A DNA stretch of 64,000 nt from the NCBI GenBank assembly GCA_963758495.1, contig CAVWVI010000003.1, forward strand, positions 1,280,001-1,344,000, given 5' to 3'. The notes beneath the pieces are model-generated. The model searched no databases. It was not told where the DNA came from and saw only the letters and a program-made list of their open reading frames with translations. A program made the translations under genes and the position numbers. The DNA comes from Oligoflexia bacterium. GTDB lineage: Bacteria; Bdellovibrionota; UBA1018. Each line of letters begins with the position of its first letter. Position 1 is the first letter of the stretch. Positions 2,773 to 25,963 of the stretch are shown in pieces.

Positions 2773-3286
2773 GAACTTGATGTCCCTTTTGAGTAAATAG
2801 ATCCAACATGATTAAACCCACTCCCACACAAATTGCGGAATCCGCTATATTAAATGCGGGGAAATGGTATCCCCACTTCCAATGAAAATCGAGAAAATCA
2901 ATCACAAATCCTAATGTCAATCGATCATATAGATTTCCAATGGCTCCCGCAATCACAAGAGAAAGCGCCGTTGCAAGTTTCTTATCCTGATCTGGAACCT
3001 TCTGAAAAACATAAATAATCGAAAATAAAGCGACTATAGGAACCACAATAAAGAAGGGGACTCGAAACTTTGGATCCGCCTGGGCTAAGAGTCCAAAAGC
3101 CGCCCCTTTATTCTGAACGTAAGTTAAATTGAAAAAATCTAATACTACCGGAAGACTTTCACCTAATTTAAATCGATCTAGAATCCAAGCTTTAGTCAAT
3201 TGATCAAAAAGAATGACTGAGCCGGTAACAATCAATAAAATGACGTACTTGTTTATTGTAGTCGACTTTTTTAACGCTCGTTTCAT
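2753..3286 (-). CDS. lspA: Lipoprotein signal peptidase II
   Basis: DQLTK, NKGAAFG, GAIGNLYDR, VIDFLD, FNIADSAI; GGAGGGA RBS before ATG 3286. Confidence 0.95.
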   Translation of the reverse strand: MKRALKKSTTINKYVILLIVTGSVILFDQLTKAWILDRFKLGESLPVVLDFFNLTYVQNKGAAFGLLAQADPKFRVPFFIVVPIVALFSIIYVFQKVPDQDKKLATALSLVIAGAIGNLYDRLTLGFVIDFLDFHWKWGYHFPAFNIADSAICVGVGLIMLDLFTQKGHQVHASFTS

Positions 3287-3325
3287 GAAACTCCCTCCAC
3301 ACATCTATGACACAGATCTAAGTAG

Positions 3326-4009
3326 TTATCGACCGCGAATAGATTGATTAGTTGTTGTTCGTAAAATAACCGGTGAGCGGCAACGCCCACAATAGGGATC
3401 CCTTTGTTGAATATCTTGGCATGCTACTAAAAGACTTCCTGATTCTTGAAGTTCAGCAATGATTGGCCCATCCGATTGAAGTTCGACAGGTGCACCATGA
3501 ACTACACTCGTTCCGACACCGAGTGTACCCAGTGTACCCCATGTGCCCATTGGACAATGATCTCCAACACTCATCAGGAGCTTTTTCGGCAAGAAAGGAT
3601 GTTGAACAGACTGTCGATCTAACCTCTCTGCGTTAAATATCAGGAGAGGTTCAGATAATTTTTCAAAGCCTGCGATTTTTTCTATCGCTTCTTGAAATGG
3701 CTGTCCCAAAATCCAGATTTCATTCCCATCCAAAGTAGGAATGAGAATGGCGATGTATTGCATTCGTGAGCTCAACGTAATGCCAAGAGTTTCAGAGAGA
3801 ATCCCAGGCGTCTTTGTCCAAACTAAAATACTCGTTCGAACAGCGCCTGCATTTAATGCAACATTTTTCAACTCAGAAAACTCCGCTAAGGCCTCCCGCG
3901 TTAAATCAAACTTCACATAAATGGATAGACTGTTTTTTTCCTCATACCGAATCTCCGCATCGGGAAGAACAGTGACACAGTGGGCACACCAAAACTTATT
4001 TTCATTCAT
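3326..4009 (-). CDS. Stand-alone, degenerate IleRS CP1 (editing) domain protein
   Basis: WCAHCVTVLPDAEIRY..SIYVKF, WTKTP, HPF, GTSVVHGAP, YCGRCRSPVILR match the CP1 insertion of IleRS; no HIGH, KMSKS or anticodon domain; lies directly upstream of lspA, where ileS usually is. Confidence 0.75.
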   Translation of the reverse strand: MNENKFWCAHCVTVLPDAEIRYEEKNSLSIYVKFDLTREALAEFSELKNVALNAGAVRTSILVWTKTPGILSETLGITLSSRMQYIAILIPTLDGNEIWILGQPFQEAIEKIAGFEKLSEPLLIFNAERLDRQSVQHPFLPKKLLMSVGDHCPMGTWGTLGTLGVGTSVVHGAPVELQSDGPIIAELQESGSLLVACQDIQQRDPYCGRCRSPVILRTTTNQSIRGR

Positions 4010-20748: not shown

Positions 20749-21054
20749 TTAACCTGCCTTTTTTGCATGAGTACTTCGACTCAGTTTCCTGATCTGCAAT
20801 CTACGATCAAGAGCATCACTGACGAGTGTTTTGATAACCGCTTGCCGACTAACATTAAGCCTTCGCGCTTCTGCGTCTAATTCTGAAAGCATTTCAGTAG
20901 TAAAATCCACGTTAACCCGCTGAATATCTTCTCTTGGAACCCCTGGCCTCATTTCCCATTTTTCACTAAAGAATCGCGTTATATCTTCACCTCTGTCAGC
21001 CATTTCAGCAATTTCATCTGGTGTTGGTACTTTTTTCTTACCGCTCTTCTTCAT
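20749..21054 (-). CDS. CopG/RHH antitoxin (BrnA-like)
   Basis: DRGEDITRFF, QRVNVDF...LDAEARRLNVSRQAVIK; overlaps the stop of the toxin remnant. Confidence 0.8.
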   Translation of the reverse strand: MKKSGKKKVPTPDEIAEMADRGEDITRFFSEKWEMRPGVPREDIQRVNVDFTTEMLSELDAEARRLNVSRQAVIKTLVSDALDRRLQIRKLSRSTHAKKAG

Positions 21055-21164
21055 AAATTTTCCTTTCCACCAAAGTAGACTTCCAAAGAGTTACTAAATG
21101 GTATAATACTCACCTTCAATGTCAGTTCGAACTTCAAAAATAACAGAGTAGAGATTAGATTTTG
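21038..21164 (-). pseudogene. BrnT-like toxin, 3' half
   Basis: AKSNLYSVIFEVRTDIEGEYY / frameshift near 21100 / HLVTLWKSTLVERKIYEEER*. Confidence 0.75.
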
Positions 21165-21400
21165 CCGCTCTTCTTAATCTATACAAATCTGGATACGATC
21201 GAGTTTAGATTAAGACGTCTGGTTTAACCAGCACATTGAATTTCTTGGGGTTGCGATTGAACGCATCCACTGGCCCGCGAGACGTGAATCCCACTACCGT
21301 GGAACCGCCAAGCCCATCTCTGAGTGGGCTGGAGAATTTTTTCTTTCTCCACTTTCTCCCAGAGTTGGCCCGAGCAAGGCACCTGTAATATTTTTATTTC
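21165..21400 (-). ncRNA. Predicted TnpB omegaRNA/reRNA scaffold region (5' boundary uncertain)
   Basis: Position at tnpB 3' end and right end; hairpins GCCCA..TGGGC and perfect 10-bp IR TCTTAATCTA/TAGATTAAGA (21172-21181, 21206-21215); inferred from known TnpB architecture. Confidence 0.5.
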
Positions 21401-22326
21401 CTGAGCAACTTTTTTAAACCCATTCATGGCGGCATTCTCATCCCTGATGTGATGAGTTTTACATTGGCCACATTGCCATTGTCTCACCGAAGGGTCTTGA
21501 GTCGGGCCTGTGGGGTGATCACATTGGGAACAGGTTTTTGTGCTCTTAGCTTCATCCCACTCAAAGTAGTTCTTCCCTTCACGGGTACAAACCCAGCTCA
21601 AAGTTTGCTTGAACTTCCCAATTTGACTTTGGTTATTCATAGAGCGCCTCATTCCAGTGGAGATCCCTCCCCCACGAGGAGTGTAGTCGCCTACTGCAAT
21701 AAAATCATAGCGTTTCACCAGAGCATTGGAGATTGCATAGAGGGCTGACTTAATCTTTTCTCGTTTCACCCGATACAACTCATCCAAGTATTTTTGAAAG
21801 AACTTCCATCTTCGGGATGGTCGCGTCATCTTACTTCCATCTTCTCTTTTTATTAAAACTGAGTTTTTATTACATCGATCTCTCCTTGCTTTAATTTCAT
21901 CTATTCTTTGATCCAAAGACTTTACGAACCAAAGATTTTCAATTTCGACCCCATTGGCTTCCGTATCAATGAGATATCCTAGATTTTTATGGTTGGGATC
22001 TATGACTGCTACTGAGTTTATTTCGGCAATCGGAGCAGGCATTGTTTTATTGATGCTCAGGTAGCTGACGAACAAGCCCCTTCTTTTTTAATTCGAATGC
22101 CAGTGAATGAAAGAAGCTTTCGAATCGAGAGTAACTTTTCTTTGGATTTTTCTTTTTTCTTCTGTGCCTTCATTCTTTTATGCTCTTTTTCCGCATGAAG
22201 AAGTTGATCCGCTACGGACTCAGGCATCTCTTGAATCTCGATCCTATGCTTCAGGGGGCCTTCCTTGTTTTCACCTAACGATAAATCTAAGTACCATTGA
22301 TGGTTCACTCGCTTGATGCTGTACCC
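21224..22326 (-). CDS. tnpB: TnpB RNA-guided nuclease, exon 2 (1-nt frameshift at G4 run 22077-22080)
   Basis: GYSIKRVNHQWYLDLSLG..., RuvC-I VIDPN, RuvC-II IAVGDY, WDEAKSTKTCSQC, CGQC, RuvC-III RDENAAMN. Confidence 0.85.
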
Positions 22327-24739
22327 GTCGAGTAAGAGGGATGTATTGCTACATCCCCCTCCTCTCAGAACCGTACGTGATACTTATCGCATCATACGGC
22401 TCAAGCAGATTGCTCACTTCTTTTAAAGTTATCTTTAGTTTCTTTAAGGTTCTGTCGGCGATGTTTGTTTCTGAGTTGCTGACAGTCGTAGTGCATGAGG
22501 TAACGGTTCTCAGCTAGTGGAGAGCCTCCAACTTTAGGACGAATAATTGGATATTCAAGAAGCCCTTCTCCGTTCAGTAAATCATTCCCACATTCTGGGC
22601 AGCGGAATTCCTGCCTTTTTGCGAGGATTTTCTGCTGTGGTTTGAGGTTCTTGATGTCTTTTCGTTTCCGTGATTCCCAATATGATTTTAGGCTCGGATC
22701 GTCAGGAGAAGAGCTTCCTTTGACCAACGTATGACGTTCAATAGGAAACCAATTGAATCGTAACATGTAGGCTCCGGTTTCTTTATCCCCGAATACCCAT
22801 TTATCGTTACGCTTTTCATTGAATTTCCCCCAGTATCTATTGCGCATCCATCGCATTGATTTATTGGGGTGTCGATATTTTACATATCGCATTTCCCGTT
22901 TGAACATCCAATTATCCATCTTACCGAAGATACGTTTTGCACAACTGGTTCTGAAGTAATTAGCCCACCCACGAATGATAGAGTTGAATTTTCCTATTAT
23001 CTCAATGGGAGAGTTCCCTTTCATTGAAAGCCATTTATCCTTCAGGTTCTTGCGAAGCTTCATTATGGATGCTTTGCTAGGCTTGATGATCAATTTCTTT
23101 CCAGATCGAGATGAACGAGGTGTGCTATATTGTCGGACATTGAAACCTAGAAAATCAAATCCTTCGGAGATGTGGACTATTCGTGTCTTTTCCTCCGAGA
23201 ATTGAAGTCCTCTTGGTCTTAACCAGTTATCGAGGATCTTACGTGATTTTTCAGCTTCTTCTTTGGATTCACAGAGCACGACTAAATCATCCGCGTATAT
23301 GATCACATCCCTTTTGGGCGAGCCATATTCTACGAATTTGTTATATCTCTGTGAATACCTTTGTTCCTTCAACGCATCTCCGATGCCGTGCAGGGCTATA
23401 TTTAATAATAATGGACTAATGACCCCTCCTTGTGGTGTCCCACTTTCAGTAGGGTTCCATTCCCCATCTTCCATGTATCCTGCTTTTAACCATTGTTTTA
23501 TCAATTCTCTTCCGGGAAATCCCGCAATGGTTTTCAGAAGAAATTCATGATTTATTTCATTAAATGCTCCCTTGAGATCGGCGTCTAAGATCCATTCTCT
23601 TTTGCCTTTACTTGGACGTACGTATCCAAATATTTTCTCTATAGCATCATGACAGCCCCGTCCTGGTCGAAATCCGTAGCATGATCCTTCGAATTTAGCC
23701 TCCCAGTATGGTTCAAGTGCATTCTTGACCATAGCTTGAAGAGAGCGATCGAGAATCACCGGAATTCCTAACGGATGGGGTTGCTTGTTTGCTTTTGGGA
23801 TATATACTCTTCTAGTTGGTTTAGCCTTCCAGAGAGTGTATTCTGATAGAGTATTCAGCAGTTGTCCTCTTTCAAAAGAGTCTTTTGCTACCACCTTATC
23901 GATTCCAGGTGTTTTCTTTCCAGAATTAATTTGCGTTACTCTCCTTACGCTTATAGCGCTGTTGGAGCGTGATCGCAGCATTAGTTTCTGTAGAGATCGT
24001 ACCTTTTTTAGATCTCCTGCTTGAGAAGCCCGAAAGATCCGGTGTCTTAGATTTCTTACAATTCGATTGGCCTCATCCCACTGGATAGATTCCCATTCAA
24101 TTTGTTCTTTGGTTACATTTGCTTGTCTTTTAACTCGCATCTAACTTTTCCCATAAGATTTAGAAACTTCACACCTTACTTTGGACAATCCACCAGACCC
24201 ACGTTAGCTCCCTTTTCAGGGCGGGTATTTTTTTTTCCCTATCTACCGAGTTATGTATTTCTCTTACCTTTCGGTTGGTAGCATTTGCTTCTTAGGTCCT
24301 CCTGTCCCCCAATGAGAATTAGATCTTTCTTGCGATCGACTTACCGAGTTATCTCGGACTCATTTGGGATTCCACGTTCCGCACATATGAGATTCGATAG
24401 GGTTGGGTTTCTTCTGTACTGCGGGAGCTTTGGTGTCTGTGCGCCTTCGCTAACAAGAAGGCTTTCATTTTGGGCTTCTCAACCCCTGCTCCATTTCAAT
24501 CGTCTTTAATTAGCCATCTTCCGATTGTTCGAATTATCGCAGCTTCATCGAAGATTTATTTGCATTAACCCTTTCTATCTTCCTCTAATCTGGTCTCCTA
24601 TTATGGTTATAGGGTCCTTAGACATTACTTCTCGCTTAGAACCCCACTGTTACCAGTGGCGCTCCGGGAAGTGAGGATATACCTAGACACTGGTATAGAG
24701 GCGTTAACCTCACTCATGGTGAGCGACCTCGTGTCGCAC
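22327..24739 (-). mobile_element. Group II intron (2413 nt), probably IIB/chloroplast-like class
   Basis: 5' GTGCG at 24739; domain V GAGCCGTATGATGCGATAAGTATCACGTACGGTTC 22402-22368; domain VI with bulged A at 22333; 3' end ACTCGAC; removal rejoins tnpB in frame. Confidence 0.92.
22401..24140 (-). CDS. ltrA: Group II intron reverse transcriptase/maturase with degenerate HNH domain
   Basis: NSGKKTPGID, PLGIP..DR, SCYGFRPGRGCHDA, GTPQGGVISPLL.NI, YADD, GFDFLGF, GWANYF; C-terminal CPEC. Confidence 0.95.
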   Translation of the reverse strand: MRVKRQANVTKEQIEWESIQWDEANRIVRNLRHRIFRASQAGDLKKVRSLQKLMLRSRSNSAISVRRVTQINSGKKTPGIDKVVAKDSFERGQLLNTLSEYTLWKAKPTRRVYIPKANKQPHPLGIPVILDRSLQAMVKNALEPYWEAKFEGSCYGFRPGRGCHDAIEKIFGYVRPSKGKREWILDADLKGAFNEINHEFLLKTIAGFPGRELIKQWLKAGYMEDGEWNPTESGTPQGGVISPLLLNIALHGIGDALKEQRYSQRYNKFVEYGSPKRDVIIYADDLVVLCESKEEAEKSRKILDNWLRPRGLQFSEEKTRIVHISEGFDFLGFNVRQYSTPRSSRSGKKLIIKPSKASIMKLRKNLKDKWLSMKGNSPIEIIGKFNSIIRGWANYFRTSCAKRIFGKMDNWMFKREMRYVKYRHPNKSMRWMRNRYWGKFNEKRNDKWVFGDKETGAYMLRFNWFPIERHTLVKGSSSPDDPSLKSYWESRKRKDIKNLKPQQKILAKRQEFRCPECGNDLLNGEGLLEYPIIRPKVGGSPLAENRYLMHYDCQQLRNKHRRQNLKETKDNFKRSEQSA

Positions 24740-25141
24740 GTTTGCATATTCATCATATTCCAAAGAAAAGAACTTTTTCTTGGACGAGCGAAACTTCGGC
24801 CACCCTACATTTTGTTGCTGATTCTTCGGAAGCTTACGATTTTTTTGAAATCGTTGAATCGATCGAGATAGTCTTAAAGCTGCATTTTTTAAGGGCGCAC
24901 AATGAGAGGTTAGTAAAAAAGGGTGTTCTTTCTTTAGACCAGGTACCAAATTTCTAAGTCCACGTTTCGTGTAAACCGTTTGCGATGCCTCAGAAGAACC
25001 TGTGAGCTTAAACGCTTCTTTCTCCTGATTGGCTCGTTCCAGAAGACGATTGTAAAGCCAATTGCAGATCCTTGACTGACCCTCCAAGGAGTACTCCTGC
25101 TCGGGAGTGAGGTTCAGGGGAATTTTAACCGCAAGCTTCAT
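24740..25141 (-). CDS. tnpB: TnpB exon 1 (134 aa)
   Basis: N-terminal HTH CNWLYNRLL, LKNAALRL..SIQRF, GWPKFRS; ends ...EYDEYAN at the intron boundary. Confidence 0.85.
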
Positions 25142-25745
25142 CAGCAGCCTCTTTCAATGCTTGTACAATTTTTTTATTCTTGTGGCTTCTGGCTCCATAG
25201 AGTCTCGCCGAAAAAACTGTGATGATCTCAAGCACGTCTTGGGCCAACTCTTCTTCAAACGAAAGTTCACTGCTCGCATTCATGATCACTACTTCAGTTT
25301 GAAACTGCTCACAAAGAGAAAATACAAGCTCAGATCCGAATCGTAAAAGGCGATCTTTGTGGGTCAATACAAGCCGATCGACTTCTCCTGAACAGATCTT
25401 TTTCATCAAAAGTCTGAGGTTCTTTTTTTGGAAGTTGAGTCCAGATCCCAGATCACTCAATACTTCATACTGCCAACCTCGAGCTGAACAAAACGACTCA
25501 AGCAATTGAATCTGGCGCTTCAAATCCGAAGTCTGATCTCGACCCGATACACGAGCATAACCAATTGTGCGACGAGCATCCTTCAAAATAGGTCCTGTCG
25601 ATCGAGTTCCAAAGGAAGTTAAATCATATCTTCGATGTCCTCCTGGAGTGCGTTCAGACTGAATTTTTCCGTCCGCTTCCCATCTACGAAGAGTCTCAAT
25701 AGTCACACCTAAAGCCTTAGCTGCTTGGTTTATACTGACTCGCAT
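25125..25745 (-). CDS. tnpA: IS607 serine-recombinase transposase
   Basis: MerR-like HTH (AAKALGVTIETLRRWE, RTPGGHRRY), YARVS catalytic Ser, DLGSGLN, KDRLLRFG, FSARLYG. Confidence 0.95.
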   Translation of the reverse strand: MRVSINQAAKALGVTIETLRRWEADGKIQSERTPGGHRRYDLTSFGTRSTGPILKDARRTIGYARVSGRDQTSDLKRQIQLLESFCSARGWQYEVLSDLGSGLNFQKKNLRLLMKKICSGEVDRLVLTHKDRLLRFGSELVFSLCEQFQTEVVIMNASSELSFEEELAQDVLEIITVFSARLYGARSHKNKKIVQALKEAADEACG

Positions 25746-25815
25746 GATTTCATTGCATTACTTATTTTTATAGATTTGTCTAGATAAGACTATATTTTTT
25801 GATGCTGTTTTATAA

Positions 25816-25963
25816 CCCTTCCTATAGCAATGAATTGCTCTGGATCATCTGAACGATAGTTGACGCAATGAGGACCATAGAAAAGCTCCTTCACTTCCTC
25901 AAATCCGATACCTCGTGTTCTTCGGACTAATTCACTTTTTACCATATCAAATTTAAACCGCAC
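25816..25963 (-). pseudogene. BrnT-like toxin, 5' half
   Basis: GTG start: MRFKFDMVKSELVRRTRGIGFEEVKELFYGPHCVNYRSDDPEQFIAIGR, ending at the IS607 left end. Confidence 0.75.

Follow-up and report, generated by a model that had tools for sequence, protein, structure and literature searches.

A group II intron within tnpB of an IS607-family element lodged in a brnT-like toxin gene of an Oligoflexia bacterium

RESULTS

Layout of the nested locus

We analysed a 64,000-nucleotide stretch of an Oligoflexia bacterium genome (GenBank assembly GCA_963758495.1, contig CAVWVI010000003.1, positions 1,280,001 to 1,344,000; hereafter the window). In this window, a brnT-like toxin gene is split by an insertion sequence (IS) of the IS607 family, and a group II intron in turn interrupts the tnpB gene of the IS. 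For each of the three layers the boundaries are resolved (Table 1). Coordinates are window positions unless a contig is named, and the whole nest is read on the minus strand (26100-20700). The initial annotation of this DNA had proposed the three-level nest; the minus-strand sequence and the list of open reading frames (ORFs) bore it out, with every junction, at base resolution.

Table 1. Features of the nested locus in window coordinates
Feature	Position	Strand	Evidence
Antitoxin gene, 101 aa, ribbon-helix-helix (RHH) type, intact	20749..21054	-	ORF; weak Pfam RHH_1 match; orthologs
brnT-like toxin gene, 3' part	21038..21164	-	Sequence reading and colinearity with four orthologs
Predicted omegaRNA guide, first 20 nt past the right end	21145..21164	-	Directly 3' of scaffold match; published IS607 systems
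IS607-family insertion sequence, 4651 bp	21165..25815	-	Second copy with same right end and other flank
Right end with omegaRNA-like scaffold, terminating GAAGAGCGG	21165..21386	-	Covariance model R1
tnpB exon 2	21224..22326	-	Pfam Cas12f1-like_TNB, E 8e-15
Group II intron, 2413 nt, same orientation as tnpB	22327..24739	-	5' GTGCG; Rfam RF00029; fold
Intron-encoded protein, 579 aa, reverse transcriptase and maturase	22401..24140	-	Pfam RVT_N, RVT_1, GIIM
tnpB exon 1, 134 codons	24740..25141	-	Pfam HTH_OrfB_IS605
tnpA, intact serine recombinase with N-terminal MerR-type helix-turn-helix (HTH)	25125..25745	-	Pfam MerR, Resolvase
IS left end (TTATAAAACAGCATC...)	25790..25815	-	Same 22-25 nt at derivative sites and at start of contig C5
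brnT-like toxin gene, 5' part, GTG start, ends ...AGGG	25816..25963	-	Pfam BrnT_toxin; ortholog alignment

The split toxin gene and its antitoxin

From its GTG start at 25963, the toxin frame continues to ...ATA GGA AGG G at 25816 and picks up again as CAAAATCTAATCTC... at 21164. On the left, the IS is joined to the toxin at GG|TTATAAAAC, from 25815 and reading on as TTATAAAACAGC...; on the right, it ends ...AAGAGCGG at 21165 and is followed by the C of the toxin. The only sequence common to both junctions is GG, and there is no target duplication. The N-terminal half of the toxin matched the Pfam model BrnT_toxin (PF04365) over profile positions 1-50 of 77 with 20.7 bits (E = 5e-4), and a score below the cut-off (34.5) is expected because the sequence is a fragment.

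We used the antitoxin as a query in 41 genomes, including this one (G000). Matches were found in 14 of the 41, and the best-match loci have a BrnT-like ORF directly upstream. Orthologs from five related genomes are 54-67% identical to the antitoxin and have a BrnT-like gene adjoining in each case; in relatives, the toxin and the overlapping RHH gene downstream of it are conserved as a pair. The antitoxin matched Pfam RHH_1 weakly (E = 0.005, under the cut-off), and the Pfam search gave no match to a BrnA model for this 101-aa protein.

Four toxin orthologs (L007, L008, L009 and L011) were aligned with the window toxin; L010 was left out since its printed ORF is cut, and L012 and L013 since they are more distant. 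The four orthologs matched BrnT_toxin over positions 1-77 at 28.3-35.1 bits, one of them above the cut-off. The window toxin was read through the IS in the script, with an X placed at a second break described below. The joined protein aligned with the four orthologs at 52-61% identity over 90 positions and required no gap at the IS junction, where it reads ...AIGR|AKSNLYSV... against ...AIGWVNTHLYSV... in the orthologs. Since no gap opens at the junction in the alignment with any of the four orthologs, the two pieces represent one split gene and not a chance match. The proposal of a split toxin depended on BrnT-like homologs of the joined frame, and these orthologs are BrnT-like, one of the four passing the family cut-off.

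A second lesion lies in the 3' part of the toxin gene. The initial annotation had placed a small indel at about 21100; it is present, and the ortholog alignment corrects it to a 2-nt surplus within TATTATAC (21108-21101), at which the orthologs read ...YY-HLVTLW. The surplus brings a premature TAG into frame at 21096-21094; the TAA that formerly ended the frame, at 21040-21038, overlaps the start of the antitoxin gene. It had been suggested that excision of the IS would rebuild the toxin-antitoxin operon. This does not hold for the present sequence, because after excision the 2-nt surplus would still stop the toxin frame 19 codons early.

The IS607-family element and its ends

The tnpA product matched Pfam MerR at residues 4-40 (E = 3e-13) and Resolvase at residues 61-190 (E = 2e-17). 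The tnpA stop at 25125 and the tnpB start at 25141 show that the two genes overlap, and related loci have the same layout. The two IS ends are unrelated in sequence, with no terminal inverted repeats. The assignment to IS607 first made for this element is supported by its MerR-HTH and resolvase TnpA, the overlapping tnpB, the lack of inverted ends and the GG at both junctions.

A search in other species found 78 related IS607 loci, all from other phyla, with a TnpA-like match upstream in 62. The exact 9-mer GAAGAGCGG occurs in 28 of the 78. In a relative with eight copies, the flanks diverge right after GAAGAGCGG and right before GGGG-CTTGTAAC (left end CTTGTAACAG), and the window left end resembles that of a multi-copy relative. 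Since copies and relatives diverge at the same points, the window element is bounded by the ends that its IS clade conserves. The clade is present in metagenome-assembled genomes labelled Chlamydiae, Verrucomicrobiae, Acidobacteriota and others (right ends L028-L073). At one of its loci (L095, the OY970364.1 copy), the tnpB match is broken by an insert of about 1.1 kb at 2884-4001, and in L057, from the same genome, the right-end motif is shifted by about 1.1 kb.

A second copy and derivatives in the genome

The 3.66-Mb genome contains only two full copies of the IS. Copy 2 (G000:C3:6-4644) has an identical right end and a different flank; with the divergence of the relatives' flanks at the same point, this answers the question whether other copies share the proposed ends. 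The two copies differ by five substitutions and one indel in 4.6 kb. The left end of copy 2 is found at the start of contig C5, with GGGG before it. A 1.72-kb IS66-family element sits 25 nt inside this left end, flanked by the 8-bp duplication CAAAAAAT, and its presence accounts for the contig break at C3:1-5/C5 start. A free copy of the IS66-family element lies at C3:243584-245303.

The left-end sequence (22-25 nt) was also found at three derivative sites, with GGG before each. GGG therefore precedes every intact left end seen (window, C5 start and the three derivatives), and the right end reads GCGG. Composites of 25 nt of the IS607 left end, an IS66-like element and 14 nt of the IS607 right end are located at four different sites (C3:100871-102611, C4:964965-966706, C4:40207-40255 and C1:101733-101781). 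Their IS66-like part occurs in either orientation or is reduced to a 28-nt hairpin of inverted ends. GGG stands before three of the four, the C1 copy has a degenerate left end, and all four end in GCGG. For excision of CboIStron, 40 and 60 bp are described as needed (10.1101/2023.11.20.567912), more than these ends offer.

The group II intron

The intron begins with GTGCGAC at 24739 and ends with ...ACTCGAC (CTTACTCGAC) at 22327. Rfam RF00029, which covers domains V-VI, matched at 22404-22327 with 59 bits against a gathering score of 40. Domains V and VI fold (z = -7.5), domain VI having an A that bulges out 7 nt before the 3' end, and a weak RF02012 match lies at 24672-24629. The intron-encoded protein had no match in any of the 78 related IS607 loci. 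Because these loci are without the intron protein and have a short gap between the tnpB parts (150-570 nt from exon-1-like to exon-2-like sequence versus about 2.7 kb here), the intron is a late arrival in the IS. A search for intron-less copies of the IS had been proposed. It succeeded in that all 78 related loci are intron-free and failed in that the 40 related genomes yielded no near-identical intron-less copy; this TnpB type was not found in those 40 genomes at E = 1e-10.

A close relative of the intron protein (E = 1e-60) was found in one of 400 other sampled genomes of the phylum (locus L102). None of 51 loci with a related intron protein (50 metagenome loci and L102) showed TnpA- or TnpB-like flanks, many of these contigs being only about 2.3 kb, barely longer than the intron.

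Other group II introns reside in the same genome. A second, unrelated intron splits a second, unrelated tnpB at G000:C1 ~323600-327100 (L018 441-3900, minus strand). The protein it encodes has 37% identity and contains an HNH domain, and RF02012 matched the intron at 76.7 bits. Its host tnpB is of the IS605 type, lies beside a Y1 TnpA and is split in frame after codon 43 (...VWNYC|NDTSF...). The two introns occupy different places in tnpB. Of the six TNB-domain loci in the genome, three are interrupted by group II introns, namely the two IS607 copies and this C1 element; for the other three (C1:309557, C1:317246 and C2:122109) the genome search gave no intron-protein match. Two more genes for group II intron-type reverse transcriptases, 30% identical, are present at L019 (G000:C4:23088-27212) and L020 (G000:C3:326479-330603). 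L019 has an RF02005 D1-D4 match and an internal stop in the reverse transcriptase; the 137-aa ORF beside the intron (L019 3481-3894) looks like the C-terminal part of a transposase.

Reconstruction of tnpB

Removal of the intron was expected to restore tnpB in frame, and it does. Exon 1 ends ...EYDEYAN and exon 2 begins GYSIKR. In-silico splicing of copy 2 at the junction given in the initial annotation yields a full-length TnpB of 501 aa, which is colinear from end to end with the uninterrupted 496-aa homolog P0003 and also with homologs of 463-486 aa. The conserved motif YDE..(N/K)G(F/Y) spans the exon junction of the spliced protein. In related loci, the N-terminal portion of TnpB shares 41-60% identity with exon 1, and the window stretch 22075-21224 encodes the Cas12f1-like_TNB (zinc-finger) domain. 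Two RuvC aspartates are invariant in this TnpB clade, that of RuvC-I (IDPNHKN, reading DPN and not DPG) and that of RuvC-III (RDENAA). A glutamate in EWDE, just before the zinc finger, is invariant as well.

Comparison of the two copies revealed damage in the window copy. A T is missing at 22059 (CCTG; CCTTG in copy 2), which results in ACC TGA, and copy 2, lacking this frameshift, is open for 386 codons. The small indel suspected in tnpB is therefore real, but it lies about 20 nt downstream of the 22077-22080 first given for it. We also weighed a programmed -1 frameshift at the AAAAAAG run (22090-22084) and rejected it, since the difference in copy 2 is a simple one of 1 nt that lies 25 nt downstream of the run. 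Three of the five substitutions between the copies are synonymous, and two change residues, both at conserved positions and both altered in the window copy. One is a W to S change in TnpB at 22070; the other is in the intron protein. The copies are also distinguishable at 22279. tnpA is intact in both copies, with a synonymous difference only. To judge by these lesions, the window copy is decaying; the earlier suspicion of decay is supported by copy 2, which lacks the tnpB frameshift and both damaging substitutions.

A conserved scaffold at the right end and the predicted guide

We aligned the last 220 nt of 18 distinct relatives, drawn from 19 loci among the 28 with the end motif; the nine loci left out were further copies from the same two genomes and one with the motif inside an ORF. 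The consensus fold has 51 pairs, of which 31 show changes on both sides compared with 11-17 when partners were slid. In total, 92.6% of the cells are paired, versus 42-50% with partners slid by 1-3 columns. None of 500 shuffles reached the observed pairing values. In the MAFFT alignment (A2), the window row formed 27 of the 51 pairs. This poor fit is due to misalignment around a window-specific insertion, and a covariance model (R1) was hence built from the 18 relatives with the window excluded. R1 gave two hits in 74,755 bases, at window 21386-21165 and at the same place in copy 2. Both hits span model positions 1-205 of 205, each with a score of 73.5 bits (E = 3e-16), and both terminate on the final base of the IS. 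The right end thus carries a conserved scaffold. A structured right-end RNA of about 205 nt, with strong covariation and the invariant end GAAGAGCGG, is common to this IS607 clade. No Rfam family covers the scaffold, and a permissive scan of 21050-21700 gave only a chance miRNA-like hit.

The predicted guide directly follows the scaffold and occurs once in the genome with up to three mismatches allowed. Published IS607 systems offer a rationale for its use. CboIStron TnpA is described as targeting TGGG, its TnpB as having TGGG as transposon-adjacent motif (TAM) and its scaffold as ending in UCGG; excision leaves a precise donor joint, which TnpB cuts (10.1101/2023.11.20.567912). For ISXfa1, GGG is described as functioning as a TAM and CGG as not doing so, with a 17-nt guide (10.1101/2023.08.09.552727). 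At the present locus, ...AGGG would stand directly before the guide match in the empty site, and GCGG stands there in the occupied one. The initial annotation had advanced a guide taken from the toxin gene together with a TAM ending AGGG. This is supported by the conserved scaffold ending at 21165, the GGG left flank and the CGG right end, as in the published systems, and the predicted guide and TAM logic is plausible.

DISCUSSION

IS insertions in toxin-antitoxin genes are commonplace. It is highly probable that the nest described here is a record of successive insertions and not a designed system. The group II intron would first have entered tnpB of an IS607-family element in the sense orientation, before the element duplicated; this order is indicated because both copies carry the intron and differ at only five bases and one indel. 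TnpA would then have placed one copy at GGG inside the BrnT-type toxin gene through a GG exchange that left no target duplication. The window copy would subsequently have gained the 1-nt deletion and the W to S change in tnpB and the R to H change in the intron reverse transcriptase, and the 2-nt surplus in the toxin gene would be a separate change. By analogy with published IS607 systems, the scaffold would be transcribed with the adjacent toxin sequence as guide, and TnpB would come only from spliced mRNA, which for the window locus means from copy 2. TnpB would cut the empty site left by TnpA excision, the IS would be restored by recombination, and the occupied site would be spared because it reads GCGG. 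Any remaining function would have to be in trans, because the window copy cannot make TnpB and the left end of copy 2 is disrupted.

Several observations weigh against parts of this reading. The left end of copy 2 is itself cut by another IS. Two registers of the GG crossover cannot be distinguished from the IS sequence alone; the toxin alignment alone favours the register of the initial annotation, because the other would drop one base and lose the ortholog match. In the TnpB clade the canonical position of the RuvC-II glutamate reads G-D (AVGDY). TnpBs with a C-terminally displaced RuvC-II glutamate have been described, as in Fanzor-like TnpBs, and the EWDE glutamate may take over the RuvC-II role here in like manner; since the canonical position reads G-D, nuclease activity would depend on this putative shifted glutamate. 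In the intron, the window protein has H122 (R in copy 2) in a conserved reverse transcriptase motif of the RPLGIP type, and the Pfam search detected no HNH domain. A simple complementarity scan for pairing of exon-binding and intron-binding sites (EBS-IBS) found no convincing EBS1/IBS1 pairing and no match of at least 5 nt ending at the junction; it gave a single match of 6 nt, which lies 4 nt upstream of the junction. The intron site may be ectopic and splicing may be poor.

These lesions raise the question whether the nest is an inert fossil, with all three layers dead at the locus and no working guide or nuclease. The frameshifted and substituted tnpB, the R to H change in a conserved motif of the intron protein, the frameshifted toxin, the absence of clear EBS/IBS pairing and the presence of just two full IS copies in the genome would fit a fossil. 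However, tnpA is intact in both copies, the window copy retains both ends and the full scaffold, and tnpB of copy 2 is open after in-silico splicing. The few differences between the copies in 4.6 kb point to recent spread, and derivatives with IS ends are present at several sites. We therefore consider a fossil possible but doubtful.

The position of the intron could alternatively mean that it is a selected control element, which gates the nuclease through splicing efficiency in the way that the group I intron and the guide RNA are balanced in IStrons. TnpB is indeed translatable only after splicing. The split of a second, unrelated tnpB by a second, unrelated group II intron in the same genome and the share of split TNB-domain loci are also in the direction of such a role. 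Yet the gene for the intron protein was not found in the related IS607 loci, and the related intron-protein loci, many of them on short contigs, do not have TnpA- or TnpB-like flanks. Moreover, the two introns are at different tnpB positions, and the close relative of the intron protein is confined to a single one of the other genomes sampled in the phylum. The general habit of group II introns to settle in mobile DNA (PMC3522654) also argues against special selection at tnpB, and a selected control element is improbable. We regard as quite unlikely a stronger proposal, in which group II introns preferentially colonise tnpB and gate nuclease output while the window copy, with its intact ends and guide, and copy 2, with its intact spliceable tnpB, work together in trans to protect the IS inserted in the toxin.

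An assembly artefact, in which repeats (the two IS copies or the IS66-like copies) were mis-joined or the small indels are single-base errors, is very unlikely. In its favour, the assembly is in five contigs, one of which starts inside the other IS copy, and the window tnpB differs by a single nucleotide in the length of a TT pair. Against it, the unique flanks on both sides correspond, in colinear order, to the halves of a single gene, and the junctions coincide exactly with ends that other species conserve. Substitutions also separate the two copies, which are therefore not collapsed, and the toxin lesion, with two extra nucleotides in a TA repeat, is no homopolymer miscount.

Taken as a series of insertions, the nest can be compared with known systems layer by layer. 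The toxin gene resembles those of BrnT/BrnA type II pairs: its product, of about 90 aa, has the Pfam BrnT_toxin domain, and the gene lies upstream of and overlaps an RHH antitoxin gene. It differs from them in its divergent match, with one of four orthologs over the Pfam cut-off, in the weak RHH_1 match and missing BrnA model match of the antitoxin, and in being broken twice. The IS shares with ISXfa1 and CboIStron a serine-recombinase TnpA with an N-terminal HTH, an overlapping tnpB, the lack of inverted ends and of target duplication, a GGG left flank, a right end whose last bases are CGG and, as those elements are described, a structured scaffold terminating at the right end. Unlike them, it has a TnpB of about 500 aa that is distant from solved TnpBs (E = 1e-5 to ISDra2-type chains), a scaffold without an Rfam family and a tnpB split by a group II intron.

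IStrons are the nearest conceptual relative of the nest. They too combine a self-splicing intron and a TnpB/omegaRNA transposon in one element, with splicing coupled to the nuclease (10.1101/2023.11.20.567912). In the IStron as described there, however, the intron is of group I and extends over the entire IS, which it splices from the host transcript, and it overlaps and competes with the omegaRNA. In the window, a group II intron with its own reverse transcriptase interrupts the coding sequence of tnpB; it ends 940 nt before the scaffold and cannot take the IS out of the toxin mRNA. Group II introns are described as settling in mobile DNA, several of them homing into specific insertion sequences (PMC3522654). 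Like E.c.I1, E.c.I3, E.c.I4, E.c.I9 and c-Ha.de.I1 in that account, the window intron is sense-oriented in an IS gene and is carried when the IS moves; unlike theirs, its host gene is an accessory RNA-guided nuclease gene and not a transposase gene. Among the open-access papers and bioRxiv preprints covered, we found no report of a group II intron inside tnpB.

The locus is an ordinary nesting of known mobile elements, each layer following a known pattern, with no new mechanism; as an example it is unusually clean. Group II introns are known to live in mobile DNA, and the presence of one in tnpB accords with this. Three selfish elements with three mobility chemistries (retrohoming, serine recombination and RNA-guided homing) are stacked here with every junction readable, and the locus offers a test bed for the question whether retention of a transposon is limited by an intron in its tnpB. 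For the IS607 family, the GGG/CGG logic that separates self from target appears to extend to a distant clade with its own conserved, putative guide-RNA scaffold.

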